The notes below the pieces were generated by a model. That model was not told where the DNA came from. It worked only from the letters and a program-made list of their open reading frames with translations, and did no database searches. A program made the position numbers and the translations under genes. This document shows, piece by piece, positions 17,278 to 64,000 of a DNA stretch of 64,000 nt. Origin of the DNA: Raillietiella orientalis (Eukaryota); NCBI GenBank assembly GCA_036172245.1, contig JAYWIR010000005.1, forward strand, positions 3,472,001 to 3,536,000, in the 5' to 3' direction. How positions within the stretch are numbered: the first letter of the stretch is position 1; each line of letters begins with the position of its first letter.

Positions 17278-18200
17278 CTTTGCGCCAGGGCGTTTATTTA
17301 AAACTCTTCTATACGTTTGTGGAACGAGACTTACCACCGCGAACACAACATTGGATCTGCCGGGTCGCCGGTACGTAGACCGCCTTGACTCTTCTCGGCA
17401 GCGGATGGGGATAAATAAAAAAAATAAGAAAAATAAGAAAAAATTAAAAAAATGAATATTTTGGAAGGCAGGTTACGGATCACTGTGCTCTGATAGGAGG
17501 GTCCATCCTTCCCAGGATGCCGTCGCGGTCCATCTGCATTCTACTCAGGTGGGACCATCGGATTGCAATTCGCAGGAAACGGACTGCAAACTTGATGGCG
17601 CCCCTTGCGTTGCTTCCTAAGTTGGCATCGCTCCATGCAGCCACAATCCCTCGGATGCAGCAAAGTGCTGCCAGAGCTGCGGCTGGTCGCATGAAGAGAA
17701 GCCGAAAAAAGTTTCTGGAGGGATTGCCAATCGGCATCCAGAGGGTCGTCGAAAGAATTTCTCAAAGGTGTCGGAAGGCAACGCAGTCCACATCCAGGTG
17801 CGGAAGGAATTCCCGTTTCCCGCATCTGGAACAGTTGGGGTTCACCTTCCCCAGCGTCCAGTGGCGGCGGCGCGCGCTGTAGGAGAGACCGTGGTGCAAC
17901 AGTAGGAGTTTCCCGACTCTTGTCACCTCAGGAAAAAGATGCTTGTTTTATTTAATACCAAGAGGTACTTCAGTTCATCCGTCGGGATGCCAAGCAGCTC
18001 TCCCCATCTCTGTGGTCCACGTGGAAGGACGCTCGAGGCTGTGGCGTCCGCCAGCTGTCCTATGGTTTCACCATTCATCGACTTCTCTCTGCATGCGATC
18101 TCGCAGGAGACGTGGGCATCCGGCTGCTATTTACCGCCCTTCTTAGAAAGGGCATCGACTTGACAAGGGGGATCGTCTCCGCCCACGTGCTTCCGCCGGC
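17278..18200 (-). mobile_element. Element N: 3' part of a C/S-type LINE inserted into O
   Basis: RSTWAETIPL...AAALAALCCIRGIVAAWSD...GILGRMDPP. 3' UTR with ctgccg..cggcag stem, and AATAAA at ~17293-17298. Confidence 0.8.
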
Positions 18201-18859
18201 TCTACTGTTGCAGTATTGGGGACTCCCCTGCAACGCCCGCCGACACCACTGGACCTGGGGAGCGGTCGACCCCAACTGCGTTAGGTGTTGGGAACGGGAG
18301 TCCCTCCCCCACCTCCTCGTTGATTGCGTAGGCCTTCGGCCCCTTTGGTTCCGCTTTGCCGCGGACATCGGTATCCCCTGCAGCAACCCCAGGGACGCTC
18401 TAAAAGCCCTCTTCGTTGCCGACGCCCTTCGGCCAGCGGCCTTGATAGCAGCCTTGTGCTGCCTCCGCGTAATCTTCGCCGGATGGAGCAAGGCTTCGGG
18501 AAGACCACGCGCCAAGGGTGCCATCCAGGGCGCCGCCCACTTCCTGAGGAGGACGTCGCGATGGTCCCACCTGGATCCGCGAATACAAGAAGAGCTTTCG
18601 GCATCCTGTGAAGGATGCAGCGGTCCCAGCAGCAACAATGATCCCTTTCCGTACCCTCCCACTTTTTCTTTTTTTTTGTTTTGTTTTTTTTTGTTTTTCC
18701 CCCTTCCCCCTGCTGCCGTGGTGGACCGTTCCGGTCTGCGAACCGGTGACCCGGCAGGCTCTGTGTTTCTTCGTGCGTGGCTGGAGCATTGTTCCAGCCA
18801 CAGCATGTCTTTGTTAAAGTTTGTTTTTCAATAAACGCCCAGACGAAACCCGGGTGAAA
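18201..18859 (+). mobile_element. Element Q: 5'-truncated 3' end of a G-type LINE
   Basis: QYWGLPCNARRHHWTWGAVDPNCVRC..LPHLLVDC is nearly the same as G. The 3' UTR matches G and ends AATAAACG...cccgggtgaaa. Confidence 0.88.
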
Positions 18860-20190
18860 ATCGAATGCCTTGTGCAAGTCGACTGCGACCGCGGTGCACG
18901 GCGTGCGGGTGCGACGCGGGACACGACAAAGCGACATACTGAGTTTCCTGCTCTTTAGCACCTATTTCGAATTGATGCTGGAGCGTACAGGGACACTGGC
19001 TTCCCAGTCGCGCGTATGTCTTGGCACGCTTGCCGTAAGCATACGTGGACGATATTCTCCTGCTCCTCCACCCATATCTATCCCGGCATGAGCATTCAAA
19101 GGCTTTTTGGAATTGCTCATTCGCGTGACGGGCCTGCTGGCTAACAGGCTGAATTCGTCCGCAATTCCATTTTGTGCGGCGTGGACAGGGCGATCGGACT
19201 CTGTTTTTCGTTTGGACGCCTACGGACCGATGCCTAATATACCTGGGCGTTATGTTGGGTAAGTTCTCCTCCGATCGTCTCCAGAAAGCAATGCATGTGC
19301 TAGGCTCGTTCTAAAGGCATGGATTCTGGTTTGCGGTTTGGAACACTTTCGTGGCATTCCTTGGTCCCCTTGTCTTTTTGCTTGTCCCCAGGCATATAGC
19401 ATCAGAAAGCAGAAAAAGTATTTTCTGGATGTCTCTCTAGGGAAAAGGGAAATCCTCAATGCACCTGGAGGACTTAGGCCCTGGGACGGCGGCTCAGTCG
19501 GTCCAACGCTGGGGCAAATGGCTGCGATTTCGAACACTTGCCCTCGTGACAAACTTCCGAAGCACTGCCTGGTACTGTTACTCCAGTTTTGAAGACTTGC
19601 TTTCGTGGCAAATCTCTGGAGAACCATCGGATGCCAAAGTGCTCGTCTTCTCGTTCAGCAATTTACTGGCAGCGTTGGACTCTCATCCTTCCTTGCGGGC
19701 ATTCCACGCATTTTCCTCCACTGAGGACTGACCTGAGACAGGTGGCCACGCTGGAGAGGGAAAAACGATGGATCTCTTGTCGTTTTGCGAGCGGAAATGC
19801 GGGGAAGTGCCAAGTTGCAGGAAACCGTTTGCACATGGGTGGGAATCTATGAGCCAAGCGCGGAGCAGTTGGGAAGTTTCCTGTACACGCGTAACTACAA
19901 CTAAACGCTCCGAGGGATCCCGGAAGTTCCCGCGAAGAGTGAATGGGCAAGCAGAACCCCTTCTCGCCTCCGTGATGCCCTCCTTTAGAGAGCACAGAAA
20001 CAGCAGTCTCACGGCTAGATGGGAAACTTCTGTGGAGATCTCCGGAAGGAGAAAATGACTGGGCGAGTAGAAAATGGGCCAGCTCCGAAACTCTGTGTCC
20101 TCGATTGCTCGACCTCGTAAACTTTTGCGTTGCAGGGTGCTACTGGGTATTGCGGAAGATCTGCCAGTGTCCCAGTGCTCAAACGACGCC
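18860..20190 (+). mobile_element. Element R: old, highly degraded RT/ORF2 fragment with a short inverted piece (18860-18893, antisense AVAVDLHKAFD)
   Basis: VHGVRVRRGTRQSDILSFLLFSTYFEL from 18894, followed by decayed homology to ORF2. The right boundary is approximate. Confidence 0.6.
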
Positions 20191-34025: not shown

Positions 34026-34055
34026 TTCTCACCCGGTCACGCCGGGGCGTTTATT
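34026..34055 (-). terminator. AATAAA followed by a CCCGG-N4/5-CCGGG hairpin forming the element 3' end; representative copy
   Basis: Found at about 12 element ends (14343, 15930, 17278, 18830, 21962, 22458, 29118, 34026, 43578, 43949, 53559, 61212); degenerate in the older copies. Confidence 0.75.
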
Positions 34056-37951: not shown

Positions 37952-39855
37952 CACGGCTGGGAAAGCGAGGCCGTGGTGCTCGCCTCACCCGGCGAGCGGG
38001 CAGTAAGCAGCACGACGGGCTGAAGGGCGCGGTCGCCACCGGCCTCAACTGTGCTGCACGTAATCGGGTGCTCCTCCCCGGGTGCAGAACCTGTGGGTTC
38101 CGGGGTGAGCACTCGCCGTTCCGCGGCGAGTGTGTCACGCCTCAGGGCTTCAGCCCTGCGGGCGCTCGCTCCCGCGCGAGTTACGCGTCGTTCAGCTGCG
38201 TTATCGGACTCCTTTGCAGGGTCTGATGCTCGCACGATCGACGTGCGCTTGCATCCGTCCGATTGCACCGGAATGGTCTTCTCGGCGGTCACAGAAGCGG
38301 ACTTGCACGCATTGAAGGCGCAGGCTTTTTCCTTGGAAGAGTCACACGCCGCGCGTGTTTTCGTATTCCTGCGACTGCTTTTTCCTTTGGAAGAGCTCAG
38401 GGATGGAGGTTGCGGAGCTTTTTTTGGAGATTTTTCTTTCCTCCTCTTCACAAACTTCCATTCGCCTTCGCGATTTTCGAAGGCTTCCGCGACAGTAGTT
38501 GCGGAAACCTCCGGGATTTTCGCTGCGTTCTCTGGGGGCGTTGCTTTCGCTACGCCTTTAAAAGGCGGCAACGGAGTCACCTTCTTGACAGTCGGGAGAT
38601 TGCTCCTCTCCTGCCGAGTCGGCGATGGGACGACTGCATGCAGCGTGCTTTTGCTCGTTGCGACGCTGCTTTTTACTGCTTTCGTAGCCTTTGCAGTGGG
38701 GCCTGCGCTGCAGTGGGGCTGTCCGGAACTCGGAAGGGACAACGGAACGGGGCAAGAAGTCTTCGCACTGTTGCGATCTTCCTGTTTTCCTACCTTTCCC
38801 TCCAGGGTGTTACGGAGATTTCCTGGTTCCAGGCTCGGAAAGGTGCCTGCGAGTTCGGCAGAGAGGGAAGGCACGGCACGCGTCAAAGCCTCGCGCCCCT
38901 TTTTAATTGGCTTCCCCGCCGTGACTTTCCCCTTTCGGGGCGTTGCGGGCGGGGATGCTTTCTTTTTATCCGCGGATCGCTCGTGGTTTTTTTCGAGTGT
39001 TTGCGGACGACGTTTTTTATTTGCCGCTGCGGCTTTTCGTGCACTGGTCTCTTGAACCCGACGAATTTCCGCTGCGGCTCTTTTTCTTGCAAGTACCGGG
39101 CACTTTTTGATTTCGTGGCCGGAATCTTTGCAATAGCGGCATCTTGGAGAGGGGCACTCTTTAATTCGGTGCCCCTCCTTGCCGCACTGCTCGCACGCGC
39201 GAATGTGGCCTATGAACCACCGGTGAACGACCGTGCCGTTCACCTGCAGCTGCTCAGGCACAACACGCCTGTTCGCGACGGTGATCCTCGCGGAGGCTTG
39301 TCCAATGTGGACAGAGGGGAAATCCTTTAGAGGATTTGGCCTCCTCCACAGAGCGTGCACGGTGGCGAACTTCGCCAGCACACTTACGACATCGCGGTCG
39401 GAGATTTCCGGTTCGATGTCGCACAATTGAACGACAAAAGTGTCGTCCATCGCGGTAGGTAGGACTTCCTTGGCATTGATGGTCAACGGCGTACGGAGAA
39501 GGCGCTGCACAAGTGCTGCGTTCTTGCACCGAATCTTCGTATATTCCATCCTGCCAGCAGGCATTATGGCAAGGAGTTCCTCCTCGCGAATGCCTATCCG
39601 GACGAGCTCATCATTGAGCTCACGACCGATTCTCCCGTTAAGTGGCCCACTGACCTTATAACGGAGTGCAGGCATGTATCCTGATGACACATATGCCTGG
39701 AACTCCGCATCGCAGGGTCCTGGTCTTTGGGAGGTAACGACGGCGTAACTCCTCGCCGGGGGCGAGGAAACCATTACGGAGGATGCGGCCACTTCAAGTG
39801 CAGCTGAAGTGCATCCAGTGGCTTGCTCCTCCACACTATCCTGTGTACTGGCCAT
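37951..39855 (-). CDS. ORF1 of element A: nucleic-acid-binding protein (RRM-like region, two CCHC knuckles, basic low-complexity tail), 634 aa
   Basis: CEQCGKEGHRIKEC and CRYCKDSGHEIKKC; K/A/P/S-rich C-terminal half. Confidence 0.92.
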   Translation of the reverse strand: MASTQDSVEEQATGCTSAALEVAASSVMVSSPPARSYAVVTSQRPGPCDAEFQAYVSSGYMPALRYKVSGPLNGRIGRELNDELVRIGIREEELLAIMPAGRMEYTKIRCKNAALVQRLLRTPLTINAKEVLPTAMDDTFVVQLCDIEPEISDRDVVSVLAKFATVHALWRRPNPLKDFPSVHIGQASARITVANRRVVPEQLQVNGTVVHRWFIGHIRACEQCGKEGHRIKECPSPRCRYCKDSGHEIKKCPVLARKRAAAEIRRVQETSARKAAAANKKRRPQTLEKNHERSADKKKASPPATPRKGKVTAGKPIKKGREALTRAVPSLSAELAGTFPSLEPGNLRNTLEGKVGKQEDRNSAKTSCPVPLSLPSSGQPHCSAGPTAKATKAVKSSVATSKSTLHAVVPSPTRQERSNLPTVKKVTPLPPFKGVAKATPPENAAKIPEVSATTVAEAFENREGEWKFVKRRKEKSPKKAPQPPSLSSSKGKSSRRNTKTRAACDSSKEKACAFNACKSASVTAEKTIPVQSDGCKRTSIVRASDPAKESDNAAERRVTRAGASARRAEALRRDTLAAERRVLTPEPTGSAPGEEHPITCSTVEAGGDRALQPVVLLTARSPGEASTTASLSQP

Positions 39856-39952
39856 GTTGCACTATGCTACTTGGCAGATTGCACAGGAACACACAAGTGC
39901 GAGCAAAAGCGCAGGAACAAAGTTGCCCGATCGTTGGCGCGGATAGACGCGG

Positions 39953-39972
39953 AAACACGTCTGCACTGTACG
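39953..39972 (-). promoter_or_regulatory. Conserved 5' RGACGTGT motif, putative internal Pol II promoter (DPE-like); representative copy
   Basis: Occurs within ~5-20 nt of the 5' end of L, F, A'', B, A, D, C, H, G and I. Resembles the downstream promoter element of arthropod LINEs. Confidence 0.6.
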
Positions 39973-42900
39973 AGCCCGGGATATCGAACGGATCTCCGGT
40001 GGGCGGCTGTTGTGGCGTTGCGGCACCGCGAAATCAAGCGGTGTCGCCTTCCTGCTTCGGCCAGCTATCGAGACCGCAATAAAGCGTTCGGTTCGATGAC
40101 GCAGGTCGCGTCGGTCAGCTGACTCTCAGCTGGTCCGATCATCGACCTGGTCGTCACCAACTCATACGCTCCTGGCGGAAACAACGCGCTGAGGGCGAAG
40201 GCAAGAAGGGAATTCTACCTGCCCTGAGACGCGATTGATCGATGCAGGAGTTCGCAAAGCGCACCTGATCGCAGGTGATTTCAACCTGCGCCTGCTTTCA
40301 GGTGCGCCGGATACACTGAACGACCGTGTCAACGAGTTGTGCGCAGAAATGAACACGCGCAACTTGTTGGTTGGGGACACGGTTATGGAAAGCAGCATCG
40401 ATCACGTGTACCTTGATCAGCACCTATGCTCTTGGGTGGGCAGGCGCGGCAAGGTACCATCCGTGCTGTCGGACCATGGTCGGATCATGTTCGAAGTGCG
40501 TCTGCGCGACAAGGGCCCCCCCTCGTCAGCGTGGCTTCTGCAAGGGGACTGGCTGAAGTTTCCCGACGCGGCGGAGCACCTCCGCGCGTTTAATCGGAGC
40601 TTCAGGATGCAGACACTTCAGGACTGGGACCGCTTCAAGCGGTTGGTCCAGGAGTTCTGCGAACAGTTCCCCCTGCATCCCCTACCTGCGGGATTTGGGG
40701 AGGGGCCGCGTAACGAAAGGCACTATCTTCAGGCCCGATGTTACGCGAGAACCCCCGACATGGGCAGGTTAGCAGAGTATCGAGCGGGAGCCGAGAGGCA
40801 AGCCTGGCAATCCGGGACGGCCAGCTTGCTGGAAGACCATGGCAGGGAGCACTCGGTTCCCGCTCAGAAACGAGGGATAGTGAGAAAATTTTACTCCACC
40901 CTGTACGTCAGGGCGCCTCCGGAGCGAGACGTCTGACGACTTCTCCTTCCGGAAGGTGCTCCAGCGATCGGGGAGGAGGAGAAAAGAAGCCTCGACGAGC
41001 CTTTCACGATGGACGAGATCCTCTCGTCCATCGGAAAGCTCAAGAGGCGGAAGGCTCCTGGGGAGGACGGCCTCCCCGCGGAGTTTTACCAAACTTTCGC
41101 GGCTGAGGTTACCCCCCTGGTACAGCAACTCACCTTGCTGATCCGCGAAACAGGTGACGTTCCCACCTCGTTTCGTTCAGCAAAGGTGCGGCTCTCCTCT
41201 AAGGGAGGAGACCTTAGGAGCATGAACAACTGGCGTCCCATGACAATAGTGAATGCGGACGCCAAGTTGCTAACCAAGCTGTGGGCAGAGCGCCTGGGAC
41301 GGGTCGCCAACATCTTCATCATCTCGGAACAGACATATGCTGTTCCCGGGCGAAATATGGAGGCGAACCTGTTCCACGCTCTTACATGGTTAGAGCTCCA
41401 ACAAGGAAGGAGCATAATAAGCAACCGGAATTCCGGTGCGTCCGTCGGTGGGGGACGGGATGGTCGGGAGGGGAGAGGAGCCCTCGCGGTCGCAGTCGAT
41501 ATCCATAAAGCATTCGATTCCGTCGACCAGAATCTCCTTTTGGAGCTTCTGGAACGCTTGGGCTTCCCGGCCTCTTTGCTGGCCTACCTGCGCTCCAGCT
41601 GGTGCGACGCGCTTATTAATGTTTTTTTTAGTGGATCCACCGTGTACGGCGTACCGGTGCGACTCGGCGTACGGCGGGGAGACAGCCTCAGCCCCTTAGT
41701 CTTCAGCGCCTATTTCGAATTGGTGCTGAGAGCGTACAGGGAGACTCTGACGCACCTGCCGTGCGATTGTCCCAATACTTCTGCGGTTTCGGCGTCCGCG
41801 GACGACCTTCTGCTGCTGCTGCCTATGTCCACCCCGGCTGCGGCGGTCGAGGAGTTCTTCGACCTGCTGAGTCGGGGAGCAGGACTGACGATGAACAGGG
41901 CGAAGTCTTCCGTAATGCCAGTCGGAGCGGCGTGGGCAGGGCAGGAGGACTGGGTCCGTTTGGGGATCCCCACGGTGAGGTACTTCAAGTACCTTGGTGT
42001 GCCGTTGGGGGACTACTCCCCTGCGGAAGCGTGGTCCGGCTGCCTTCAGAAGTCTCAGGCGGCGATCGGCCCGTTCCAGGACAGCAGGTTCTACCTGCAG
42101 AAACGGGCCGCGGCGTGGAACGCATTTGCTACCCCCCTCCTTCGCCCCTTGCTTTTTGTTTGCCCCCCCTCAGCGGAGTCAAAGAAGAAGGAGAAGGACT
42201 TCCTGAGGATCGCCCTTTGGAGCAGAGGGAGGCCCCGAGTCCGTGTTTCGGACTTGTGCGCTCCTCGTCGGGATGGTGGGCTGGGCCTCCTGACTTTGGA
42301 GCGGCTGGAGCTACAGCTCCAGTTCCGAGTTGTTGCCTTTATGGCAGAAAATTGGTGCACCCCTTGGTGCCTCCCTGCACGTCTCCTCGTCGTGCGGGCC
42401 ACCGGCAATGCGGGACTCTCGTCCTACTTTGCACTCGGATGCCACATCTGCCACTGCGGACTTGAACTTCGGAGGGAGGTCAAGCTCGTGAAGAACAACT
42501 CGGCGCGGATCCTCGTACGCCCCGCGAACGGTCCTGCCTGGTTGCAGGAAACCGTCCTCACATGGGCGATGATTCAGGAGCAGAGCCCGCAACACGAGCG
42601 AATAGCTCTGTTCGGGCAGCATGTCCACCGCACGCTCCGAGAAATTATCGAGAATCCCCGAAGGAGAGCGTAGGCACAAAGAACCTCCCTTGCTGCGGTA
42701 CTGTCTACCCTACGGGAACATCTGGGCAGCGACGTCGCGGCACAATGGGAGGTTACCGTCAAGATCGCCAGCAGGGCAAAGAAGATCGGGGATTGGAGAA
42801 CGGGTATGCTCATTAACGCTGCGACCCCGAGGACTACCCCAAATGGACTGTTGCGCTGGGGAGAGCTACTGGATGTTCCAGAGGAACATCTCGAGTGGTC

Positions 42901-49857: not shown

Positions 49858-52104
49858 GATTGAAATCTCCCACAATCAGGTGAGCCTTCCGCACGTTCGT
49901 GTTCGCCAGCCAGTCGCGCTTCAGGGATTCAAGCAGCCTGGTGCCTTCGCTGTATCCCTGTTTACCGCTGGGGGCGTACACATTCGTGACGATCAGATCG
50001 ATCGAGTCGGACCAGCCGAGAGTCAGCTGACCGACCCGACCGTCGTCATCGAAGCGCACGCCCTTCACGGCAGCGTCGATGGCCGGCTTCACGAAGAACG
50101 CGACCCCGCAGGTGTTGCGGAGGCCGCACCGCCAATACAGCCGACCCCCCGCGATCGTCTCGATCTCCTGGGCGTCTGCCGCGGTGATCACGTGGATCTC
50201 CTGCAGCAGGGCCAGGTCGAGCTCACGCAGGGTGTCGGCTGTATCTCGCCTGTTACCGTCGTCGCGCAGCCCGTTGACATTCCAACAGGCCGCGCGAATC
50301 CGACAAAGACTGTCGAGCCCAGGTGTTATTCCTAAAAAGATGGCGATGCGGCGTCCGCCACCTGCTGAGGCGGGACGCTAGGTGGAGGAGGAGGGTCAGG
50401 TGCTGAAGGCACCTGGTCCTTCTCCTCCATAGGAAACTGTACGTCGAGCGGGTCACCCACAGGTGGGGTCGCGTTTACCTGTTCGCCCTACTCCATGGGG
50501 GTGGCCGGATCGACGGCTTCCGAGCGTGGGAATTCCTCCTCCGAATTTCCCACGCTGTCGACGGCTTCCGTCTTCTCCTCCTCGCTGGTGGAGGGGAGGC
50601 GCCTCCTTGGCTTCTGGGACTTGCGTCCCGACTTCCTGGGGGGTGCCTCCGAGGAGGAGGATGTGCTTCCGGCCCCCAGGTCTAACTCACCTTTGGGGGC
50701 CTTCTTCGCCGGAGCCGGCCTTCGCACGGCCTTGCTCGAGGGGTTCTCACGATCGGCCAGCGTGACCGCGAGCTTCTCCGCCGCCTGCGCGAACGCTGCG
50801 TCCGCGGTTTCGACCGCCGCTATGTCGCGCGGCTCACCCTCTGTGTAAACAGAGGGTTCGCCGTCGCGAGCCTCGGGCGCAGCGTAAACGGCAAGGGCAG
50901 GATCGACGCTCCGGGTGGCAATCTCCGGAACGACGATTCGTTCGAGTGCCACCGTGCACTCGCGCAGAGTTTTCGAGCGCGGACCGGGTTTTTTCGGCTT
51001 ACCGGCCGTCTTGCGCTCTTTCCTCTCCGCGAGTGGGGGTTTCGTTGGCTTTCTGGCCTCTACAAGCTGCCATCCCTCTTCGCCCTTTACCGTTTCAGAA
51101 GGTTTATCCTCCGGCTTACGCGCCTGAGGTTGAGGTGTTGGCAGTTTGTGCTGGCCCTTTTCCACTTTAGGTCTAGAGACCTTTGAAGCGCGTTTCCCCT
51201 GCTCTTTTTTCGCGGCAGGGGGAACCGTGGTGGGGTGTTTGGGGCACACGCGCCGAACGTGGTCCCGCTCCCCGCACAAATAACATTGTATATTGGGACA
51301 CCTTTTACGTAGGTGTCCCACGGTATCACAATGCCCGCAATACCGGGGCTTCCCTACATACCGCAGGTCGACGTTTTCTTGCGCCATCTGTAGTTTGTGG
51401 GGAAGCCCACAATTCTCCCTTACGGTGACCCGCGCTGCAGGCTGCCCACCAAAAAGGCTGTCGAAGCCGTTGAAAATGGAGGGTTTCGGCCACAGTGCGT
51501 GCACCTCACCGTACTTTCGCAATTCCTCACCAACCGCTGACCGCGTCATGCGTCTGTTGATGCCAGTCATGTGGACCACCACGGAGCGGTCCATTGATAC
51601 TGACAGGATCTTGCGGCCGTCTACGTTCAGCGGCGCATGGATTAGGCGGTGAGCCAAGGTAACATCTTTGCGGACCACCTCGACCCGCTGCCCGCCGCTG
51701 AGGACGGAGAGGCCGTCCAGATCCTTCTCAGTGACATTCGCGTCCTTCAACGCTTTGCTGAAGGCGCGCGCTGTCCGGCCGTCGAACAAGTTGCCTACCT
51801 GGTAGACAAGCGATGGCTTGTACCCAGAGGCTTTGTATGCGGCGATCTCCGCCATGGCTTCAGCGCTGGGCGCGGCCACCATTGCGCTCCATGTCCTCGG
51901 CGTGGATGAAGATGATTCCGGGGCGGCTGCCCCTGCTCCAGTAGGCTGTGGGGGCGAACTAGCCTCCCCCACTCCCACCTCAATCGCGGTGTCCTCTGGC
52001 GTCGTGGCCATTGGACACCGACGATGTACACAAAACACCACACACAAGAAAGCGCTTTCCTACTACTCTTTGAGGAGTGAAGGAAAAACACGTCCTCCAA
52101 CTGG

Positions 52105-53543
52105 CCTTAGAGGGGTTTGGCTGCAACGATGCAGATAGCTCGTCCGCCGCACGCTCGAAGGCGGCGTCATCGATCACGGTCTCGATGACGGACGCTTCCG
52201 CCGGTTCGCTCCCCACGCTGTTGACATTTTCAACAGTGGGTTGCTCGTCGGTAGCAGCGATTTCTACCTTGCGGCGTTCGGCGGGGACGCGTTCCACGAC
52301 GACGCTGCATTCTTTTGAATTCTCGCTAATCTGCTGTTTTTTATATTGGTAGGCGAGCTTTTTTTCAATTCGTCGTTCGTTCTTCGACTATTTTTTCTTT
52401 TTCGCTGTGACTTCTTGCCATTCCGACACCTGACCGCTTTTGTCGATCTTTTCGGCATTCGTTGCCGGGGTGTCGGCTGAGGCCTGGACCACGGGGGTGG
52501 GTGGCACAGCTTGAGCGGCAGCCTTTGCCGCCAGTTTTTTCTGTAGCAGCCGCGCGCGTTTTATCAGGTTCCTCGCGGAAACCACGCGCACAGCGGATTG
52601 TGGACACACTTTCTTCATGTGGCTCATTGTCCCGCCTACCAGGCACTGTACGTTGGAGCACCTACTTTTGAGGTGTCCCGACGTGTTGCAGAACCGACAG
52701 TATTTGGGCTTCCCCACGTACCGGAGGTCGACGCTTTCTCCGCCGACCACCAGTTTGTGGGAAAGGGTAGAGCCCTTCCGAACGGTTACACGGGCAGCCG
52801 TGAGGCCACACTGAACTGTGGTATAGTCCTCGAAAGGACTAGGCTTGGTCCATACTGCATGGACCATGCCTTCTTTTCCCAACGCGGCGCGTAACTGTTC
52901 TTTCCGCATCCGCGCGGTAACTCCTAAAAGGTGGACCACCATACTGTGGTCCGCCGTAACGGGAAGGAGCCTTCGTGTCCCCATTACCACGGGGGTTTTA
53001 AGCAGACGTTGGGCCAGATCTGCATGTTTGCAGATCACCTCTACGTACTGCCCCCCGCTACGAATGGTCATAGCGCAGAGCTCCTCCTCTTTAACATCGA
53101 GAGCGCGCATCCCCTTCGAAAAGGCGCGCGCACTCTTAGAAGAATACAAATTTCCTACCTTGTAGAATAGTGATGAATCATACCCCTCTTCCACATAGGC
53201 AGATAATTCCGCCGCGGTTGCAGGCGATGGCACCGACACGACGGCGCTCCCCGCGTGCGCTGCAGCGGGGACCGGTTTTGTGGGGGCGAAAGCTCCCTCC
53301 TCCTTCGCCACTAAAGGCGACGTTGCCGCCGCCTCCAGGCACTTTACCTTCTCTAGAGGCGACGTTGCCGCCGCCACCTGGCACTCCATTTCTTCAGGAG
53401 GCGACGTTGCCCCCGCCCCCTGACACGCACTGGTGGTCGTGTCAGGCATTGCTGCCTGATCGACCACCACCACACACAAAGCCTACACCTAGGGAAGGTT
53501 CCCGGAACGAGGAACACCGAGGAAACACGTCCGCTCTAGCCGA
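52105..53543 (-). mobile_element. Element H: 5' end and ORF1 of a G-type LINE, interrupted by C
   Basis: ORF 52388-53479 MPDTTT...AYVEEGY..CRFCNTSGH..; 5' GCGGACGTGT at 53525-53534. Confidence 0.9.
53316..53420 (-). repeat. Three 42-bp (14-aa) tandem repeats in the N-terminus of H ORF1
   Basis: aggcgacgttgcc(g/c)ccgcc recurs at 42-nt spacing: GATSPPEEMECQVA / AATSPLEKVKCLEA / AATSPL. Confidence 0.85.
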
Positions 53544-53558
53544 CGTAAAGCTGTCGAT

Positions 53559-56500
53559 TTTCACCCGGATTTCTCCAAGTCGTTTATTAAAAAAATAAAC
53601 TTTGTAAACAAATTATAAATGGCTGTGGCAATGCTCCAGCCAGAAGCTAAGAACCACAGCGCCTGCCAATTCACAGGTTTCTAGACCGGTACGGTCCACC
53701 AAGGCAGCAGGGGAAAGTGGAAAAACAAAAAAAAAACAAAAAAAAAAAAAGAAACTAAACAAAAAAAAACAAAGGGTGGGAGGGAACGGGAAGGGATCAC
53801 TGTTGCTGCTAGGGCCGCATCAACCCTCTCAGGATGCTGGCAAGCTCATGTTTGTTGTGAACATCCACGTTGGGCCATCGCGACGCCCTCCTCAGTAATT
53901 CGGAGGCGCACTGGATCGCTTCCTGATCGCTAGGTCCTCCCGTCGCCGTGCTCCAGACGGCGACGATCCCACGAAGACAGCACAAGGCTGCTATCGAGGA
54001 CGCTGGCCGCAGAGCGTCGGCAACGAAGAAGGCTTTTAGTGCGTCCCTGGGGTTGCTGCGAGGGATACCGATGGCCGCGGCAAAGCGGAACCAAAGGGGC
54101 CGAAAGGCAACACAATCCACTAGGAGGTGGGGGAGGGACTCCCGTTCCCCGAACCTTACACAATTGGGATCCACCGCTCCCCAGGTTCAGTGGTGTCGAC
54201 AGGCGTTGCAGGGGAGTCCCCAGTGCTGCAACAGGAATGCCGACTCTTGCCATTTGAGGGAGAGGATGGAAGTGTTCATGAGAATCGGGGGCCACTTCAG
54301 ATGTTCAATCGGAACATCCAGCAGCGCTCCCCAGCGCAGAAGTCCATTAGGAGGCGTACTCGGGGTCGCCGCATCAGTTAGCTGGCCCGTCTTCCACTCT
54401 CTATGCTTCTTCTCCTTCGCGGAGATTTTTATTGTAACCTCCCACTTCGCCGCAACATCGCTGTCCTGATGTTCCACTAGGGAGTCCAGCGCAGCGACGA
54501 GGGGGGTTCTTCCTGACCACGCTTTCTTCTTAGGATCCTCCAGGATCTCACGGAGCGTGCAACTTCTGTAACACCCAAACAGGAACCTTCGTTCCTGATG
54601 GGAGGGTTGCATGCCGAACTGTCCCCACGTACGAACGGTTTCCGGCAACCAGGCACTACCGTTCGCGGGGAGACAGGTGATCCATCCTTGATTTTTCCTT
54701 GCCAGCGCAGCCACCCACCGTAGCTGAAGCCCACATCGGTTGATGCGGCTTCGATGGAGTGCAAGAAACGACGTAAGTCCCGTCTTGCCGGTGGCTTGCT
54801 TAAGGAGGAGACGTGCAGGGACGCACCAACAGGTGCACCATAACTCCGGCACAAGTGCCAAAATCCGAAACTGGAGCTGCAGCTCCAGTTGCTCCAATGT
54901 CAGGAGGCGGAGACCACCGTTTCGACGCGGAGCGCACAAGTCCTTCAAGCGGACTCGGGCCCTCTCGTTGCCCCAAAGGGCGATACGGAGGAGGTCCTTC
55001 GTCCGCTTTTTGATCATCTCTGCGAGGGGGCAAACAAAAAGCAGGGAACGGAGGAAAGTAGCCGCGAACATGTACCAAACCGCGGCCCGTTCAGGCAGGA
55101 AAAACCTGCCGCCTCGGAACGGGCCGATAGCCGTCTCTACTTTTTGAAGGCAGCCGGACCACGCTTCCGCAGGGGAGTAGTCCCCCTACGGCACACCAAG
55201 GTACTTGAAGTACCTCACCGTGTAAATCTTCAAACGGACCCAGTCCTGCTGCCCTGCCTACGCCGCACCAACTGGCATCACGGACGACTTCGTCCTGTTC
55301 ACCTTAAGCCCGGTTCCTCGATTCAGCAAGTCGAAGAACTTCTCGACCGCCGAAGCCAAGGTGGACATAGGGAGCAGTAGCAGGAGGTCGTCCGCATATG
55401 CTGAAACCGCAGGCGTTACGGCGCATTCATGTGGCAGGTGCGCCAGAGTTTCCCTGTACGCTTTCAGTACCAACTCAAAGTAGGTACTGAAGAGCAAGGG
55501 GCTCAGGCTGTCTCCATGCCGGATCCCACGTCGCACCGGCACGCCGTGAACAGTATGCCCGCTGAAAGTAACATTGATAAGCGCATCGCGCCAGCTAGAG
55601 CGCAGATAGGCCAATGATGAGGCCGGGAAGCGAAAGCGTTCCAAAAGCTCCAGCAGGAGATTCTCGTCGACGCTGTCGAATGCTTTACGCAATTCGACTG
55701 CGACCGCAAGTGCTTCCTCCCCCATCCGACCATCCGTCGCATGACTGACGGACTCACCGGAATTCCCGTTGCGCATCAAGCCCCTTTCGTGTTGGAGCTC
55801 TAGCCAGGTGGAAGCGTGGAACAGGTTCGCCTCCATGCTTCGCCCCGGAACAGCGTATGTATGTTCCGGGCTGATGAAGGCGTTTGCAACCCTTCCCAAA
55901 CGCTCAGCACAAACCTTAGCTATCAACTTGACATCCGCATTCACTATTGTGATGGGACGCCAGTTGTTCATGCTCCTCAGATCTCCTCCCTTAGGGAGAA
56001 GCCGCACCTTTGCCGAACGAAACGAGGCGGGAACGTCACCTGTCTCGCGTATCAGCAAGGTGAGTTGATGTACCAGTGGGGTTAGCTCAGCCGCGAAAGT
56101 TTGATAAAACTCCGCGGACAGGCCGTCCTCCCCTGGAGCCTTTCGCCTCTTGAGCTTTCCGATGGCCGAGATGATCTCGCCCATCGTTAAAGGCTCGTCG
56201 AGGGACTTTTTCTCTTCTTCCCCGATCGCAGGAGCGCCTTCCGGAAGCAGGATTCGTGAGAAATCCCGCTCGAGAGGCGTTCTTCCGTACAAAGAGGAGT
56301 AAAAACGCCGCAGCAGACCGCGGATCTGAGCGGGTGCCGAATGCTCCTGGCCTTGATCGTCCAGTAAGCTGGCCGATCCTGACTGCCAGGCTTGCCTTTC
56401 GGCTCCCGTTTTGTATTCCGCCAACCTGCGGATGTCGGGGGTCCTGGCGTAACGGCGAGCTTGCAGATAGGCTCGTTCGTTACGTACCCCGTCCCCAAAT

Positions 56501-59147
56501 CCCGCAGGTAGGCGGTGCAGAGGGAACTGGTCGCAGAACTCCTGGACCGACCGTTTAAAGCGGTCTCAATCCTGAAGTGTCTGCATCCTCAAGCTCCGTA
56601 TAAACGTGCGGAGATTCTCCGTCGCGTCCGGGAGCTTCAGCCAGTACCCTGGAAAACGCCACGCTGAAGAGGAGGGGCCCCTGTCGCGCGGATGGATCTC
56701 GAGAACAGGCGGGCGATGATCGCACAGCTCGCACGGTAACTTGCCGCGCCTGCCCACGTGAGGGCAAAGATGCTCGTCAAAAAACACGTGGTCAATGCTG
56801 TCTTCCATCCTCGGTGCACTGACCAACAAATTACAGGTGTGCAGCGCCATGCACACCTCCTTGACCAGGTCACGCTCGGGATTCTGCCCATCTGGTTTCA
56901 GGCGAACGTTGAAATCGCCTGCAACCAGATGGGCATTCCGCACGCCTGCTTCGGACAGCCATTCTCGCCGGAGGGCAAGGAAAAACTCTTTCCTTGACCT
57001 CCTGGTCATCAAGTCCCTGCCGCTCGGTGCGTACACGTTCTTGACGGTCAGATCGATCGAGTCGGACCACCTGAGAGTCAGCTGGCCGACACGACCGTGA
57101 TCGTCGAACCGCACGCCCCGAGCCGCGGCCTCGACGGCTGGCCGAAGCAGGTAGGCGACACCGCAACTTTTCGTTCTCCCACACCTGTACCATAGCTGCT
57201 TTCTGGAGATCCGTTCGATCTCTTGCGCTTGTTCAGCAGAGATCACGTGGATCTTCTACAGCAGCGCAAGGTTGTAGGACTCCAGAAGGGCGGCCATGTC
57301 ACGTCTCCTGCCGGCGTCTGTCATGCTGTTCACGTTCCAAACCGCGATGCGTAGTCGACGGCGGGAGGAGATTCCCGGCATTACTGCTGGGAAGTTTAAT
57401 TTTCAAGGGAGCCCGCCTCTTGCGAGGCGGGCGGGATATCCATGGGGGTTTCGGCCTTCTCAGGCACCTGAGGCACCTGTTCGGCCTCCGCTTTCTCCAT
57501 CCCCTCCGTTTTCGCGCGTGGGAGTCTCTCGGGCGACGGGTCCCGCGAGTTTCCCACGCTCATGGCACCCTCGCTTGCGGAAGCCGTCTCTTCCCTTTCG
57601 ACGGGAGAGATGAGCTTCCTCGGCTTTGTGGAATTACGTCCAGCCTTCTTGCGGGGTGCCGTGGAAACGGAGACTGCGCTTCCGGCCTCCACCTCGGGGT
57701 CGGAAGTGGGGGACTCCTGAGGGCAGGTCGGACGCCTTACAGCCTTCTTGCCAGCCTTGAAGGGTTCTGGCTGCAACGAGGCTGCCAGCTCCTCCGCGGC
57801 TCGCGCGAAGGCTACGTCATCGATGCTGGTGTCGTTGACGGACGCCGCCGCCGGCTCGCTCCCCTCGCTGTTGACTGTGTCAACAGAGGGGAGGTCGTCG
57901 GAAACGGCGAGTTGTTTCCGGGAGCGTTCAGCAACATCGAGAACGCGTTCGACAACGACGCTGCACTCTTTATTTATCGCGCTACCCTGCTCTTTCTTCT
58001 TTTGTTGGTAGGCGATTTTTTTTCCATCCTCCTCTCCTTCTTCGATTTTTTGGCCGTTGCCACTTGCCACCCAGTCTCCTGGCCGGCTCCCTCAACTTTT
58101 TCGGCGTTGGTCGCCGGGGTCTCGGATGCGGCCTGGGTTTTGGGCGCGGGTGGCACAGCCTTCGCGGCAGCTTTTGCCGCCAGCCTTTTCTGCAGAAGCC
58201 GGGCACGTTTTTTAAGGTTTCTCATGGAAATCACCCGCACTGCTGCTTTTGGGCACACCTCACTCGTGTGACCCATTGTGCCCCATACTTGGCACTGCAC
58301 TTTGGGACACCTCGTTTTGAGGTGACCCGACGTATTGCAGAAGCCACAGTATTTCGGCTTCCCCTCATACCAGAGGTCGACGGTTTCGCCTTTGACCACC
58401 AGATTGTGGCGAAGAGTGCAGCCCTGCCGAACGGTCACGTGCGCAGCCGTAAGGCCGTGTTGCAGCCTTGTGTAGTCCTCGAAAGGACTAACTTTCGTCC
58501 ACTGCGCGTGGACCGTTCCGAACTGTTCCAAAGCGGCGCGAACCTATTCTATGCGCATTCGCGCAGTTACACCTAACAGGTGGACCACCATGCTGCGGTC
58601 CGCCGTAGTGGGGAGGAGCCTACGCGTTCTCATCACAACGAGGGTTTTAAGCAGTAGTTGAGCCAGCTCTGCAAGTTTGCAGATGACCTGAACGTACTGA
58701 CCCCCGCTGCGGATGGTCATAGCGCTGAGCTCCTCCTCTTTCACATCGAGAGCGCGCATGCCCTTCGAAAAGGCGCGCGCGCTCTCTAAAGAATATAGAT
58801 TGCCTACCTTGTAGAACAATGAGGGGTTATACCCCTCCTCTACATAGGCCGACAATTCCGCCGCGACTGCAGGCGATGGCGCCGACACAACGGCCCTCCA
58901 CGCCCGCGCTGTAGAGGGGACCGATTCTGTGGGGGCGAATGCCTCTACCTCCAGCGCCTCTGGGGACGATGTTGCCGCCGCCCCCTGGCTCTCTATCGTC
59001 TCTGAGGGCGGCGTTGCCGCTGCCCCCTGGCCATCCCTGGTGGTCGCGTCAGGCATCGCTGCCTGATCGACCATCGATCCACACGACGCTTCCACTGGGG
59101 GAGGCTTCCTGGCAGGAGCACCGAGAAAACACGTCCGCCCTAGAGCG
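53559..59147 (-). mobile_element. Element G: full-length G-type LINE (degraded), inserted antisense into the RT of J
   Basis: ORF1 ~57381-59056 and ORF2 ~53809-57381 in fragments (GDFN, RKAFD, YADD). Flanked by cgtaaagctgtcgat (53544-53558) and cacaaagcgttcgat (59148-59162). Confidence 0.92.
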
Positions 59148-61240
59148 CACAAAGCGTTCGATTGCGTGGACCAGGAACTCCTTCTGGAGCTCCTGGATGT
59201 CATGGGCTTTTCGGACACGTGAACGGTCTACCTGCGGGCCTGTTGGCGCAATGCGATCATCAACATGTTTTTCAGAGGAGAGCACGTGTTCGTCGTGCCG
59301 GTGAGGCGCGTTATTCGGCAGGGCGACAGCATGAGTCCTATGCTCTTTAGCACCTATTTCGAACTGGTGCTGAGAGTATACAGGGTAACATTGGCTGCCC
59401 TGCCAATCTCGTGTCCAGGTACGCCGGCCGTAGCGGCTTACGCCGATGATCTTCTTCTCCTTTTGCCCATGTCCGCCCCGGCAGCCGCAGTCGAGGATTT
59501 CTTCGATCTGCTAAGCTGCGGGACTTGACTACGGGTAAATAAGTCGAAGCCATCAGTGGTAGCGGTTGGTGCGACGTGGGTCGGACGTCCTGACTGGATC
59601 CCCTTGAAGATTTTCACGGAGAGGTACTTGAAGTACCTTTGCGTTCCGTTGGAGGACTTCTGCCAGTCAGAAGCCTGGTCAGGATGTCTAGAAAAGTGGA
59701 GTCAGCGATAGGCCCGTTTTTCTAAGGCAAGCTTCACTTGCCGGAACGGGCCGCGGTGTGGAGCGCGTTCGCGGCTTCCCTCCTTCGCCCTCTGCTTTTT
59801 GTTTCCCCCGTACCCCGTGAACTGAAAAAAAGAACAAAGGACCTCCTACGCATCGCCCTGTGGGGCGGCGGGAGGCCTCGTGTGCCTTTAAAGGATTTGT
59901 GCGCTCCACGTCTGGACGGAGGTCTTAGCGTCCTGACGATGGAGCGAATGGAAACACAGCTGCGGTGGCGCACTCTAGCCATCGCAGCGAAAATGTGGAA
60001 CACCCCTTGGTGTGTTCCAGCCCGCCTTCTCGCCAGACGTGTGTCCGGGACTGAAGGACTCGCGTCTTTTCTTCTGTGCCCCGGCCGGAAAATAAGAAGA
60101 TGCGGACTTCTCCTGGGACGCATGGCCACCCTGGCAAAGGAGAGCGGGTGAATGGCCTGCAGCCTCGCCAACTCCAGCGCATGGCTGTAAGGAACAGTTG
60201 GAACGTGGGCAAAGTTGAAACACATCAGTGGAGAATCCTGCAACCGCCTGCGCACCGGCATCTACACCCTCTGCACGCTGCGGAACATGATCGTGTGTCC
60301 CGTCAGAAGCACTTGGGCGGAGAGGACCCCACTGGCCACGGCGCTGTCCTTCCTACGAAGGGTGCTTCAAAACAGCCGGAAGCCGAGATGGCAAGTCCCC
60401 TGCCGGATAGCGGGCAAAGAGAAGGATCTAAGCGGGTGGACAATGAAGGAACTGGCAGACGCCGCAACCCGAAGCGTTCACCCGCATGGAATACGGAGAT
60501 AGAGCGAGCTGCTTGGCATCCCGGCGGATGACCGAGAGTGGCCCCCGTTGTGCCTTTTCCACTCTCCCCCTCAAGTGGTAGGAAACGGCGCTGTTGTTGT
60601 TGCACTGAGGTCTTCCCTGAAACGCGCTCCGCCACCACTAAACGTTGGGGAACGTCGAACAGAACTGTTCAGTGTGCGGGGAGAAGAAATTTCTCCCCCA
60701 TCTGTTAGTGGACTGCACTGCCCTTCGGCCCTTGTGGGAACGTTATGCTACGACCCTCCCTATGCCGGTCGGCAGTACCCCCAGAGACGTTGTGAGACTC
60801 CTCTTCGTGCGAGACGCCCTGCCACCAGCCTCAACCCTGGCAGCGCTCTGCTGCCTCCGAGGGATTGTGGCCGCCTGTAGCAAAGCTAACAGAGGAAGCA
60901 GCGACAGAGACCCCATCGTACACGCGGGTCGCTACTGGCGAATCGCGATCGGCTGGTCCCATCTGGGAGCTATGACGAGGGACCTCGAGGGCTTCCTGGA
61001 AAGCATGGTCCCCTCCTCCAGCGGGCTGTGATCCCTTCCCTGCCCTCCAAATAGTTTCTTTTTGTTATTTCATTTATTTTTCTTTTTGTTTTATCCCCTA
61101 TCCCCTCCGCTGCCGAGGAGGACAAGCTGGCCTCAGAACCGGCTTCCTGGCAGGTCCCATGAAATATTGGCCGTAGCAGGGCCTAGTACCGCAAATGTAA
61201 AGTGTTTTTTTAATAAACGCCCCGGCGTGACCGAGTGAAA
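59148..61240 (+). mobile_element. Element J: RT-to-3'-end part of a C/S-type LINE
   Basis: Starts HKAFDCVDQELL; RQGDSMSP, YADD, CSVCGEKKFLPHLLVDC; ends AATAAACG-cccggcgtgaccgag-tgaaa. Confidence 0.9.
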
Positions 61241-62749
61241 ACTTCCCCGTGTCCAGTGATGACGGGGTAAATTGCAAGGCAGTGCCCAGTGCAACAGCAT
61301 CAGCGCCGAATCCTGCCATTTTAGGGGAAGGATCCTGGTTTCAGTTATTACTGGGGGACACTTCATGTCATCAGTCGTGATGCCGAGCAGCTCGCCCCAT
61401 TTTTTTAGTCCTCGCGGAAGGACGCTATGGGTTGTGGCGTCCGCTAGCTGTCCCATTGTCCAACCGCTCAACAGTTTTTCGCTGCCTGCGATACGGCAAT
61501 TGACTTGCCACCTCGGCGTCCGGCTGCTGACGATTGCCCTACGTAGGAAGGGTAGCACCGTCGCCAGGCAAGTCGCTTCTGCACACGTGATTCTGGCTGG
61601 ACACTCCACGATCTTGCGTAGATTGCAGCGGACGTATCGACCGCGTCGCAGCCTATTCCATGTCACGTGGCTCCTTTTATTCACTACAGCCCATGTGTCA
61701 ACTGTTTTATCCAGCCATGCGCTGGAGTTGACGGGGCTGCAGATCAGCCAAGCATTCTCCTTAGCCAGGGTGGCTATTCGTCCGAGGAGAAGGTTGCATC
61801 TTGTCTTCCTTCCACGACATAAAAGAAGAGATGCGAGTCCTCCCGTTCCGGATACACGTCTGGCGAGTAAACGGGCGGGAGCACACCAGGGGGTGCTTCA
61901 CAGCTTGGCTGCGATGGCCAAGGTTCGCCAACGCAGCTGAATTTCCATGCGCTCCAGCGTCAGGAGGCCTAGACCACCATCACGACGCGGAGCGCACAAG
62001 TCCATCAAAGGGACTCGAGGATTCCCCTTGCCTCAAAGGGCGATGAGCAGGAGGTCCTTGATCCTCTTTTTTATTTCTCTGGGGACGGGGCAAACAAAAA
62101 GTAGGGGGCGAAGGATGAGAGCCGCAAAAGCGTTCCATACTGCGGCCCGTTCCGGCAAGCGGAACTTCCCGTACAGGAAAAAGCGGATCGCCAAATCCAC
62201 TTTTTGGAGACGGCCTAACCATGCTTCTGAAGAGGATAAGTCCCCCAGCGAAACGCCAAGGTACTTCAGATGCGTGCTCGTTGGGATCCCCAGGCGAATC
62301 CAGTCTGGCCGTCCCACTCACGTCGCTCCAACTGCCGCCATCGACGATTTTGCCCTGTTGACCCGTAGCCCTGTCCCACGGCTTAGCAGGTCGAAGAAAT
62401 ATTCGACTGCTGTTGCCGGGGCGAACATTGGCAGCAGTAGCAGGAGATCGTCGGCATATGCGGACACGGCAGGCGTGCCATGGCACGAGCTTGGCAAGGC
62501 AGCCAAAGTCATCCTGTATGCTCTAAGCAACAACTCGAAATAGGTGCTAAAGTGCAGGGGACTGATGCTATCGCCCTGCCGAATCCCGCGGGGCACCGGC
62601 ACGCCGTACACGTTCTGCGCTCTGAAAGAGATGTTTGTTAACGCGGCTCGCCAGCAGGAGAGCAGGTACGCCGTTAATGTAAGAGTGAAGCCCATGTAAT
62701 GCAGAAGCTCTAGGAGGAGCTCCTGGTCCACACAGTTGAACGCCTTGTG
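61241..62749 (-). mobile_element. Element K: RT/C-terminal part of a C/S-type LINE, bounded by J and I
   Basis: HKAFNCVDQELL, RQGDSISP, YADD, KYLG; broken at HHWTRGS by the 3' end of J. Confidence 0.9.
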
Positions 62750-64000
62750 CGCTCCAGGGTGGACGTGTTTTCTCGGTGCTCCTCGTGCCAGGAAGTCTCC
62801 CCCAGTGCAGGCGTCGTGTGGTTCGGTGGTCGATCAGGCAGCGATGCCTGACACGACCACCAGGGATGGCCAGGGGGCAGCGGCAACGCCGCCCCCAGAG
62901 GCGATGGAGAGCCAGGGGGCCACGGCAACGTCGCCCCTAGAGGCGATGGAGGTGGGGACATCCGTCCCCACAGAATCGGTCAGCGCTGCAGCGCAAACGT
63001 GGAGCGCCCTTGTGTCGGCGCCATCGCCTGCAGCCGCGGCGGAATTGTCGGCCTATGTAGAGGAGGGGTACAACCCCTCATTGTTCTACAAGGTAGGCAA
63101 TTTATATTCTTTAGAGAGCGCGCGCGCCTTATCGAAGGGCATGCGCGCTCTCGATGTGAAAGAGGAGGAGCTCAGCGCTATGACCATCCGCAGCGGGGGT
63201 CAGAACGTTGAGGTCATCCGCAAACATGCAGAGCTAGCCCAACGACTGCTTAAAACCCCCGTTGTGATGGGGACGCGCAGGCTCCTCCCCACTACGGCGG
63301 ACCGCAGCATGGTGGTCCACCTGTTAGGCGTCACCGCGCGAATGCGCAAAGAACAGGTTCGCGCCGCTTTGGAACAGTTCGGAACGGTCCACGCGCAGTG
63401 GACGAAAGTAAGTCCTTTCGAGGACTACACATGACTGCAACACGGCCTCACTGCTGCGCGCTTGACCGTTCGGGAAGGCTGCACTCTTCCCCACAAACAG
63501 GTGGTCGAAGACGAAACCGTCGTCCTCTGGTATGTGGGGAAGCCGAAATACTGCGGCTTCTGCAATACGTCGGGCCACCTCAAAAAGAGGTGTCCCAACG
63601 TGCAGTGTCAAGTATGCGGCACAATGGGTCACACCAGGGAGGTGTGCCCAAAAGCAGCAGTGCGGGTGGTTTCCAAGAGAAACCTTAAAAAACGCGCCCG
63701 GCTTTTGCAGAAGAGGCTGGCGGCGAAAGCTGCCGCGAAGGCTGTGCAACCCGCGAACAAGACCCAGGCCGCAACCGAGACCCCGGCGACCAACGCCGAA
63801 AAAGTTGAGGGAGCCGGCCAGGAGACTGGGTGCCAAGTGGCAACGGCCAAAAAATCAAAGAAGGAGAGGAGGATGGAAAAGAAAATCGCCTACCAACAGA
63901 AGAAGAAAGAGCAGGGTAGCGCGATAATTAAAGAGTGCAGCGTCGTTGTCGAACGCGTTCTCGATGTTGCCGAACGCTGCCGGAAAGAACTCGCCGCTAC
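62750..64000 (+). mobile_element. Element I: 5' end and ORF1 of a G-type LINE (runs off the window)
   Basis: cgctccagggtggacgtg start; MPDTTTRDGQG...; very similar to G ORF1; in-frame stop at 63432. Confidence 0.92.

Follow-up and report, generated by a model that had tools for sequence, protein, structure and literature searches.

Long interspersed elements (LINEs) with specific targets are known from rRNA genes, telomeres, small RNA genes and a few transposons, and one of them, R1, makes a 14-bp duplication. Other LINEs form nests. Passages on the Zepp-like L1 elements state that they "target existing copies" and lie in nested, GC-rich clusters (PMC8226300, PMC3446292), those of Blanc et al. 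2012 (PMC3446292) describing clusters of nested elements together with local GC peaks, and a passage on Cnl1 of Cryptococcus describes its preference for inserting within itself (PMC9942834). The preference of these nest-forming LINEs for existing copies is thus known, and a nucleotide-level target is not given in those passages. That target-specific LINEs can carry an apurinic/apyrimidinic (APE) endonuclease, with transposons among their targets, is established (PMC4640811). Here we analyze a 64,000-nucleotide stretch of Raillietiella orientalis DNA (assembly GCA_036172245.1, contig JAYWIR010000005.1, positions 3,472,001 to 3,536,000), referred to as the window, in which a subfamily of L1-like LINEs, the G subfamily, probably integrates site-specifically, in independent events, and antisense into the reverse transcriptase (RT) motif A codons of other LINEs.

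The elements described below resemble R1, TRAS/SART, and Tx1 in what appear to be a precise insertion point and a fixed staggered cut with a constant short duplication, in having an APE endonuclease and an RT in the second open reading frame (ORF2), and in using multicopy sequences as targets. The difference lies in the target itself, which here is the protein-coding RT motif A of other LINEs, entered antisense, with four elements in one window. As with Zepp and the Zepp-like elements of green algae, a LINE-only nest of ∼50 kb forms a GC peak here too; the Zepp-like clusters, however, are tandem arrays mostly of 3′ ends for which the passages describe no nucleotide-level target, and the comparison is one of description. 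Cnl1 copies lie in tandem, in the same orientation and in subtelomeric positions, whereas the copies here are antisense, sit in RT motif A, and enter other families too. Term searches of open-access text, with the original Zepp papers outside their scope, turned up no account of a LINE that homes to RT motif A in antisense orientation.

Results and Discussion

Paired Junctions in RT Motif A

Two G-subfamily elements stand at the center of this analysis. The first, G (53558..59147, minus strand), had been taken by an earlier, sequence-only reading for an insert of the G type. The element is indeed present, but it is not short: the tblastn map shows a full-length 5.6-kb LINE with a 5′ untranslated region (UTR) at ∼59057–59147, ORF1 at ∼59056–57396, and ORF2 at 57399–53827, all on the minus strand. 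Its ORF2 aligns with the intact 1201-aa ORF2 found elsewhere in the window over aa 6–1196 in a single frame with 5 stops, and its 3′ end at 53558 reads ...AATAAACG...CCGGGTGAAAA. The second element, I (62750..64000, plus strand), has its 5′ UTR at 62750–62843, starts ORF1 at the ATG at 62844, and continues past the end of the window. The ORF1 translations of both G and I contain two CCHC knuckles of the form C-x2-C-x4-H-x4-C.

The hosts of both elements are RT fragments of a different family, the J family. Host J (59148..61241, plus strand) is a 5′-truncated LINE that extends from ORF2 aa 579 to its own 3′ end (...GAGTGAAAA) and carries ∼11 stops and 2 frameshifts. Host K (61242..62749, minus strand) is an RT fragment that covers ORF2 aa 579–1073 in one frame, with 3 stops in ∼496 codons and no frameshift. 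The plus strand at 59130–59147 is cacgtccgccctagagcg, which gives the G 5′ end (CGCTCTAGGGCGGACGTG) when reverse-complemented, and host J follows directly from 59148 with CAC AAA GCG TTC GAT. At the other junction, 62736–62749 is the reverse complement of CAC AAG GCG TTC AA, the host K codons being CAC AAG GCG TTC AAC, and the I 5′ end (CGCTCCAGGGTGGACGTG) begins at 62750. Both hosts start at ORF2 residue 579, at the first base of the H-K-A-F-D codons in RT motif A, and both inserts are antisense to the RT fragment that they adjoin. We refer to the 14 nt at this border, CAC AAR GCN TTC GA on the host sense strand, as T14. In J, T14 is CACAAAGCGTTCGA (59148..59161, plus strand; codons H K A F D(2/3)), and in K it is CACAAGGCGTTCAA (62736..62749, minus strand); in each case the 5′ end of the insert meets its first base.

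The sequence-only reading had placed the 5′ ends of G and I, both antisense, at the identical nucleotide of the HKAFD motif, and the sequence at 59148 and at 62749/62750 is as it described. It had also held that this site encodes the first catalytic Asp motif of the RT, which is correct only in part. The site does lie within motif A. Alignment, however, places HKAFD at E602–D606 of human L1 ORF2p and the Asp two codons upstream (VDL) at D600, which we take to be the catalytic Asp; the site begins two codons past that residue, and the Asp of HKAFD is not the catalytic one.

The 3′ end of J cuts K on its 3′ side, at approximately residue 1073 and antisense, which is consistent with integration of J antisense into K, the 3′ junction of J alone being visible. 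The resulting layout is head-to-head, a 5′ part against a 3′ part with both 3′ ends outward, as in the 5′ inversions of L1, for which twin priming is a known mechanism. A single LINE insertion that underwent twin priming, seen twice, is nonetheless scarcely credible here. What is inverted is not the upstream part of J but an entire element from another family, with the RT of G separated from J at 100/100 in the RT tree, and the candidate was rejected on this ground. In addition, the two parts would leave ∼1.6 kb unaccounted for between them, and two diverged elements would not be expected to break at an identical point. Here, in contrast to L1 inversions, each part belongs to a different family, and one and the same nucleotide serves as the junction repeatedly.

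Divergence of Inserts and Hosts

The two inserts are more alike than the two hosts, as the sequence-only reading had estimated by eye (∼90% identity against ∼70% next to the junction). G and I share 92.4% identity (1152 matches, 95 mismatches, and 4 gap columns), and J and K share 76.7% (1132 matches, 344 mismatches, and 65 gap columns). When both arms are placed in one continuous alignment, 95 of 1247 positions mismatch to the left of 59148 (7.6%) as compared to 370 of 1471 to the right (25.2%; Fisher p = 1.2e-35). By maximum likelihood, the change point of identity falls at 59160 (2-logL support interval 59131–59192, which includes the junction). The first J/K mismatch occurs 6 nt from the junction, and the 25% divergence begins immediately. 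The same reading had named equal divergence of hosts and inserts as the sign of one inverted duplication, and the values found are ∼25% and 7.6%.

The two comparisons differ in kind as well. Mismatches between J and K fall on codon positions 1, 2, and 3 at 87/492, 85/492, and 198/487 (18/17/41%), and over 463 codons the synonymous divergence (dS) is ∼0.80 and the nonsynonymous divergence (dN) ∼0.19, for a dN/dS of 0.24. The comparison of G and I gives a dS of 0.11 and a dN/dS of 0.59 in ORF1, and the 5′ UTR differs at 10 of 94 columns. An excess at third positions is seen in 6/6 pairs among K, J, and two further J-family copies, E5 and c20. Because of this third-position excess and the dN/dS of 0.24, most of the difference between J and K is taken to have arisen while both lineages were selected as working RT genes, a decayed duplicate being expected to differ equally at the three codon positions. 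Such divergence is impossible for two dead, 5′-truncated fragments that descend from one duplicated junction, and J and K are moreover no more similar to each other than to E5; on these grounds we reject a single inverted duplication. In this respect, how the hosts diverge weighs more than how much. A neutral inverted duplication, or palindrome, likewise fails as a candidate, since the uniform divergence it entails is absent, the change from 7.6% to 25.2% falls at the junction, and the mismatches show the codon bias given above.

The inserts are young relative to the split of J and K. In the RT tree, J, K, and E5 form a trichotomy within a 100/100 clade (J+E5 51/28), with identities in the RT comparison of 72.7% for J–K, 76.4% for J–E5, and 74.1% for K–E5, and the HKAFD site of E5 is uninterrupted. 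By stop codons, the hosts are at least as decayed as the inserts, K not clearly more so (5 stops in the 1191 codons of G ORF2). The earlier statement that the hosts are older than their inserts is more aptly replaced by one that the hosts are separate members of another LINE family; K is not clearly older than G by this measure. Its conclusion of independent insertions at one site is supported by the codon-position pattern, by the RT tree, and by three further junctions described in the next section.

A more elaborate form of the duplication would start from a single ancestral junction between a G-type element and an RT fragment, followed by inverted duplication and then by gene conversion, from other copies, of one host arm or of both insert arms. 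The geometry lends itself to this, as the composites lie 3.6 kb apart, inverted, and align in one high-scoring segment pair (57905–60607 against 63996–61287, 81.8%). Mosaic identity of 82–99% is found within another duplicated unit of the nest, and a J+K clade remains compatible with the approximately unbiased (AU) test (p 0.436), a result that also counts against independent insertion as we propose it. Yet the conversion tract would need to reach the very edge of homology, the first mismatch being 6 nt off, the J–K differences bear the signature of purifying selection, and the three other T14 junctions, in different contexts, would be left unexplained. We consider this course of events very unlikely.

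Further Junctions at the 14-nt Site

The 3′ end of G is followed directly by a 14-nt remnant of RT motif A, T14′ (53544..53557, minus strand), which reads TCGACAGCTTTACG in the sense of G. T14′ is a diverged antisense T14, matching the site in G's own RT (CGTAAAGCATTCGA) at 12 of 14 positions and that of J at 10 of 14. Four nucleotides (TCGG, 53540–53543) separate it from the 5′ end (CTAGAGCGGACGTG) of G3 (52104..53539, minus strand), the 5′ part of a third G-subfamily LINE with an ORF1 open for 364 aa. G3 is 80% identical to G and to I, and breaks off at 52104 against the 5′ end of E5. A fourth copy, G4 (18197..18860, plus strand), is 5′-truncated and comprises ORF2 aa 1060–1192 and the 3′ UTR; it is 78.8% identical to G and ends in ...CCCGGGTGAAAA. 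This 3′ end is followed by TCGAATGCCTTGTG and then by 30 nt, all of it antisense RT coding sequence. The host fragment, H4 (18861..18904, minus strand), consists of T14 (CACAAGGCATTCGA) and the 30 nt upstream of it, which encode TPCTAVAVDLHKAFD, and G4 joins it exactly at the GA of the Asp codon. H4 itself (44 nt, approximately residues 569–583) is joined head-to-head to a plus-strand, long-branch RT fragment of the G family that starts at approximately residue 625 (18861–19801).

Every visible G-subfamily 5′ end (3/3) lies at one border of T14 and every visible 3′ end (2/2) at the other, in four host sequences, so that all four of the window's G-subfamily elements with a visible end (4/4) sit at T14. 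The window contains 10 RT motif A sites, 4 of which adjoin a G-subfamily terminus while 6 are uninterrupted. A search for degenerate T14 at ≤3 mismatches returns 31 matches among ∼128,000 positions and strands against 27 expected, and only the position and context of the matches carry weight. At 31 matches in that many positions and strands, a match at exactly 53544–53557 is unlikely by chance, and chance as the source of the five T14 junctions was rejected on position and context. In conservation, 10 of the 14 columns of T14 are invariant in five copies of three families, a score that 111 of ∼2800 windows equal or exceed. The one serious alternative is a lack of independence among the junctions.

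Taken together, the five junctions define a 14-bp target duplication, which we infer by combining the ends of different elements. Several observations weigh against site-specific insertion. No single element has a matching 14-nt pair. Only for G does the window include both ends, and its two flanks, which stem from different host families, disagree at 4 of 14 positions; the reading of these flanks as a simple target-duplication pair was rejected, since only ∼1 mismatch is expected from its ∼3% decay, estimated from 5 stops in 1191 codons. The upstream half of J was sought beyond G in the window and was not found. G is either a recombinant of two insertions, a bridge between two cleaved sites, or the site of an assembly copy switch inside the element. 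Moreover, all five junctions come from one 64-kb nest with rearrangement and mosaic homogenization. Finally, a sister lineage, G2 (70–79% identical to G), lies at another site, as does c25 of the same sister lineage, neither being at T14, and the specificity is not family-wide.

The unmatched flanks of G are what a chimeric assembly path would give, and a dense nest of repeats that are 65–97% similar is a setting in which a false palindrome or chimeric joins between similar LINE copies might form. Hairpin artifacts, however, produce near-identical arms, while the arms here are 92% and 75% identical, and a path switch inside an element makes no junction between an element end and a host, of which five recur with different flanks. 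An assembly artifact is accordingly highly improbable as the source of the pattern. A related sequencing run that contains 7% of the sequence words yielded 442 contigs at a likeness of at least 80%, all of them short and 271 less than 90% alike, and none of those listed bridges the junctions.

It is also conceivable that T14 is a hot spot for joining without any endonuclease specificity, the element RNA carrying the 14 nt and the junctions forming at RT motif A sites by homology-directed annealing or recombination wherever an element lands in another LINE or close to one. The 14 nt could ride at the 5′ end (5′ transduction) or behind the 3′ end (read-through), and copies in such sites would be expected to yield read-through RNA that ends in the complement of the target primer strand. 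The remnant next to G3 is closer to G's own RT site (12/14) than to J's (10/14), and its divergence from J is about that of G3 from G overall (80% identity), as if the 14 nt travel with the element. Opposing this, the 3′ flank of G4 extends 30 nt into real upstream RT coding sequence, which marks a genuine host gene, and the 14 nt next to G and next to I run on without a break into 1.5–2.1 kb of host RT. Such a hot spot, which we regard as unlikely, would still amount to site-specific integration and differs from insertion by a specific endonuclease only in what reads the site.

A Model for Antisense Insertion at T14

The geometry of the two kinds of junction is as follows. At the 3′ junction, the element end (...GGGTGAAAA) is joined after host-sense ...CAC AAR GCN TTC GA, within the Asp codon of HKAFD. 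At the 5′ junction, ∼4 variable nucleotides and then CTAGRGCGGACGTG are joined 14 nt upstream, before CAC. Since the two junctions are 14 nt apart, the 14 nt would be present on both sides of an insertion as a target-site duplication.

In the model of site-specific insertion, G, I, G3, and G4 would be separate copies of one L1-like APE-endonuclease subfamily that uses target-primed reverse transcription at this one 14-bp sequence in the RT genes of other LINEs, always antisense. The first nick would fall on the host sense strand within GA^Y, and the 3′-OH at this nick would prime cDNA synthesis with the LINE RNA as template; on the opposite strand, 14 nt away, would lie the second nick. These steps go beyond the junction geometry and are modeled on the established mechanism of target-primed reverse transcription, with cleavage at the site itself predicted from sequence. 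The choice of site may stem from the endonuclease's own specificity, as in R1, TRAS, and Tx1, or alternatively from pairing of the nicked target with read-through transcripts that carry the 14 nt behind the 3′ end of the element. The quasi-palindrome (G leftward and J rightward from one junction, K leftward and I rightward from the other) would have formed when J already lay antisense in K and each RT gene was then struck at its own T14. An inverted J/K pair that predates the insertion of G and I is indicated because the 3′ end of J abuts K at approximately residue 1073, antisense.

If this model is correct, it provides a concrete mechanism for the growth of LINE-only islands, in which the target is renewed with every new LINE copy. 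Escape of the target by mutation would be hard, because the motif is needed for RT function and the site cannot easily mutate away. This would be a clear case of one selfish element that parasitizes or disables others, and if the specificity resides in the endonuclease, it would add another natural example of a retargeted APE nuclease.

A broader proposal, which we put forward only tentatively and consider doubtful, is that the LINE families of the nest home to specific sequences in each other's coding regions and form a mutual, LINE-against-LINE targeting network. In such a network, the G subfamily would target RT motif A of J- and G-family copies, and the family of the window's one intact copy, REF, would target endonuclease codons 62–67 of G-family copies. 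Were this true, the nest would be a LINE-only safe haven, possibly a centromere-like island, with rivals inactivated, and the target would be a motif from which no working RT can mutate away.

The LINE Nest and Its Families

LINE copies are nested on both strands from ∼13.4 kb to the end of the window. When the window was searched by tblastn with the two proteins of the intact copy (ORF1 and ORF2), ∼25 fragments were mapped, and fragments of three families occupy ∼13.4–64 kb. The GC content is 54–62% across this ∼50-kb LINE-only nest as compared to 41–52% in the first 12 kb. This GC-poor left part contains, at 2577–4549, ORFs whose ankyrin repeats are strong (Ank_2, E 2.6e-49), together with a weak, subthreshold match to PRANC (E 0.0032); these ORFs may be a hint as to the kind of host genome.

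The intact copy, REF, has an ORF1 of 636 aa (37954–39861, minus strand) with zf-CCHC by Pfam and an ORF2 of 1201 aa (34382–37984, minus strand) with Exo_endo_phos (E 6.9e-11) and RVT_1 (E 9.4e-21) by Pfam. The closest solved relative of this ORF2 is human L1 ORF2p (E 3.3e-45), with the L1 endonuclease also among the best, and R2 scores much lower. Atlas neighbors carry RVT_1, Exo_endo_phos, and zf-RVT. The features of APE-type LINEs are present, with an endonuclease followed by an RT in ORF2, a CCHC ORF1, target-site duplications, and 5′ truncation; clean duplications of 12 and 17 bp bracket two nested full-length copies, and J, K, G4, c14, c16, and c20 are 5′-truncated. In these respects the elements are ordinary users of target-primed reverse transcription. 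A homologue search with the intact ORF2 returned 10 proteins, the best at 23–25% identity, and no close relative. Metagenome scans gave no relative with the G3 ORF1 protein, and with the 5′-end motif of the G subfamily a single contig, which on inspection was judged to be an unrelated chance match.

The RT tree of 11 window fragments resolves three families, each with 100/100 support: REF, REFdup, c14, and E6 form the REF family; the own RTs of G and G2, with c18b, form the G family; and J, K, E5, and c20 form the J family. This tree covers window fragments, and the L1-like label is drawn from the solved relatives and the domains. All three families lack a long poly(A) and end 3′ in AATAAACG-CCCGG-(loop)-CCGGG-TGA(A)n. 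This ending is seen at 53558, 18860, 61241, 34026, 22458, 43948, 29118, 43606, 16152, 15929, 14343, and 21990. Its 5-bp stem is conserved and predicted, with compensatory change in 0/5 pairs and hence no covariation.

Possible Other Fixed Sites and Rearrangement in the Nest

The REF family may have a fixed site of its own. The 3′ ends of REF and REFdup (34026–34031 and 22458–22463) read ...GTGAGAA/ATCT... at the same nucleotide, antisense, in endonuclease codons 62–67 of two G-family hosts. REF bears its 12-bp duplication at this site and has its 5′ end at 39965/39966. A third REF-family 3′ end lies at 14343 (14343–14325) and is followed by ATCTCGGCAGCC... and then by the 5′ end of another REF-family copy. 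A contig in the sequencing run (depth 17.4) links a J/REF-like 3′ terminus through GAA to G-family endonuclease codon 62 (61238 to 57218); this join is the same type of junction as that of REF in G2 and may be a counterpart of that locus.

G2 is inserted at ORF2 residues 276–281 of E5 with the 17-bp duplication. The 5′ ends of G2 and c25 (32122–32140 and 25552–25566) abut ORF2 residues 276–280, antisense, in hosts of different families, E5 and REFdup. The two elements are 69% identical, and their junctions are ∼18 nt apart, that of c25 being within 1–2 nt of the inferred G2 nick.

A duplicated unit of ∼7 kb (21991–29117 and 33483–40700) is mosaic in identity, with 89% in the left host flank, 82% in the REF 3′ UTR, 92% in ORF2, 97% in ORF1, 99% in the 5′ UTR, and 97% in the right host flank. 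In one copy of the unit, a 1265-bp 5′ piece of the G family, c25, stands in place of 1269 bp. Differences between the 3′ halves of REF and REFdup are in excess at third positions (61/921, 35/920, and 116/923), and the 5′ halves with the host flank, at 97% identity, have their differences spread evenly (14/18/14). The mosaic points to gene conversion or recombination in the nest.

Finally, the 3′ flank of c20 (AACCCTTTAGGCTGG..., 21948–22010) and the 5′ flank of E5 (...AACCCCTCTAAGGCCAG, 52060–52160) contain the same 16–17 nt of G-family ORF1, in opposite orientation and at a distance of 30 kb. The pair resembles a duplication made by one insertion, after which recombination between inverted J-family copies would have inverted the segment 21991–52103, and E5 and c20 would then be chimeras.

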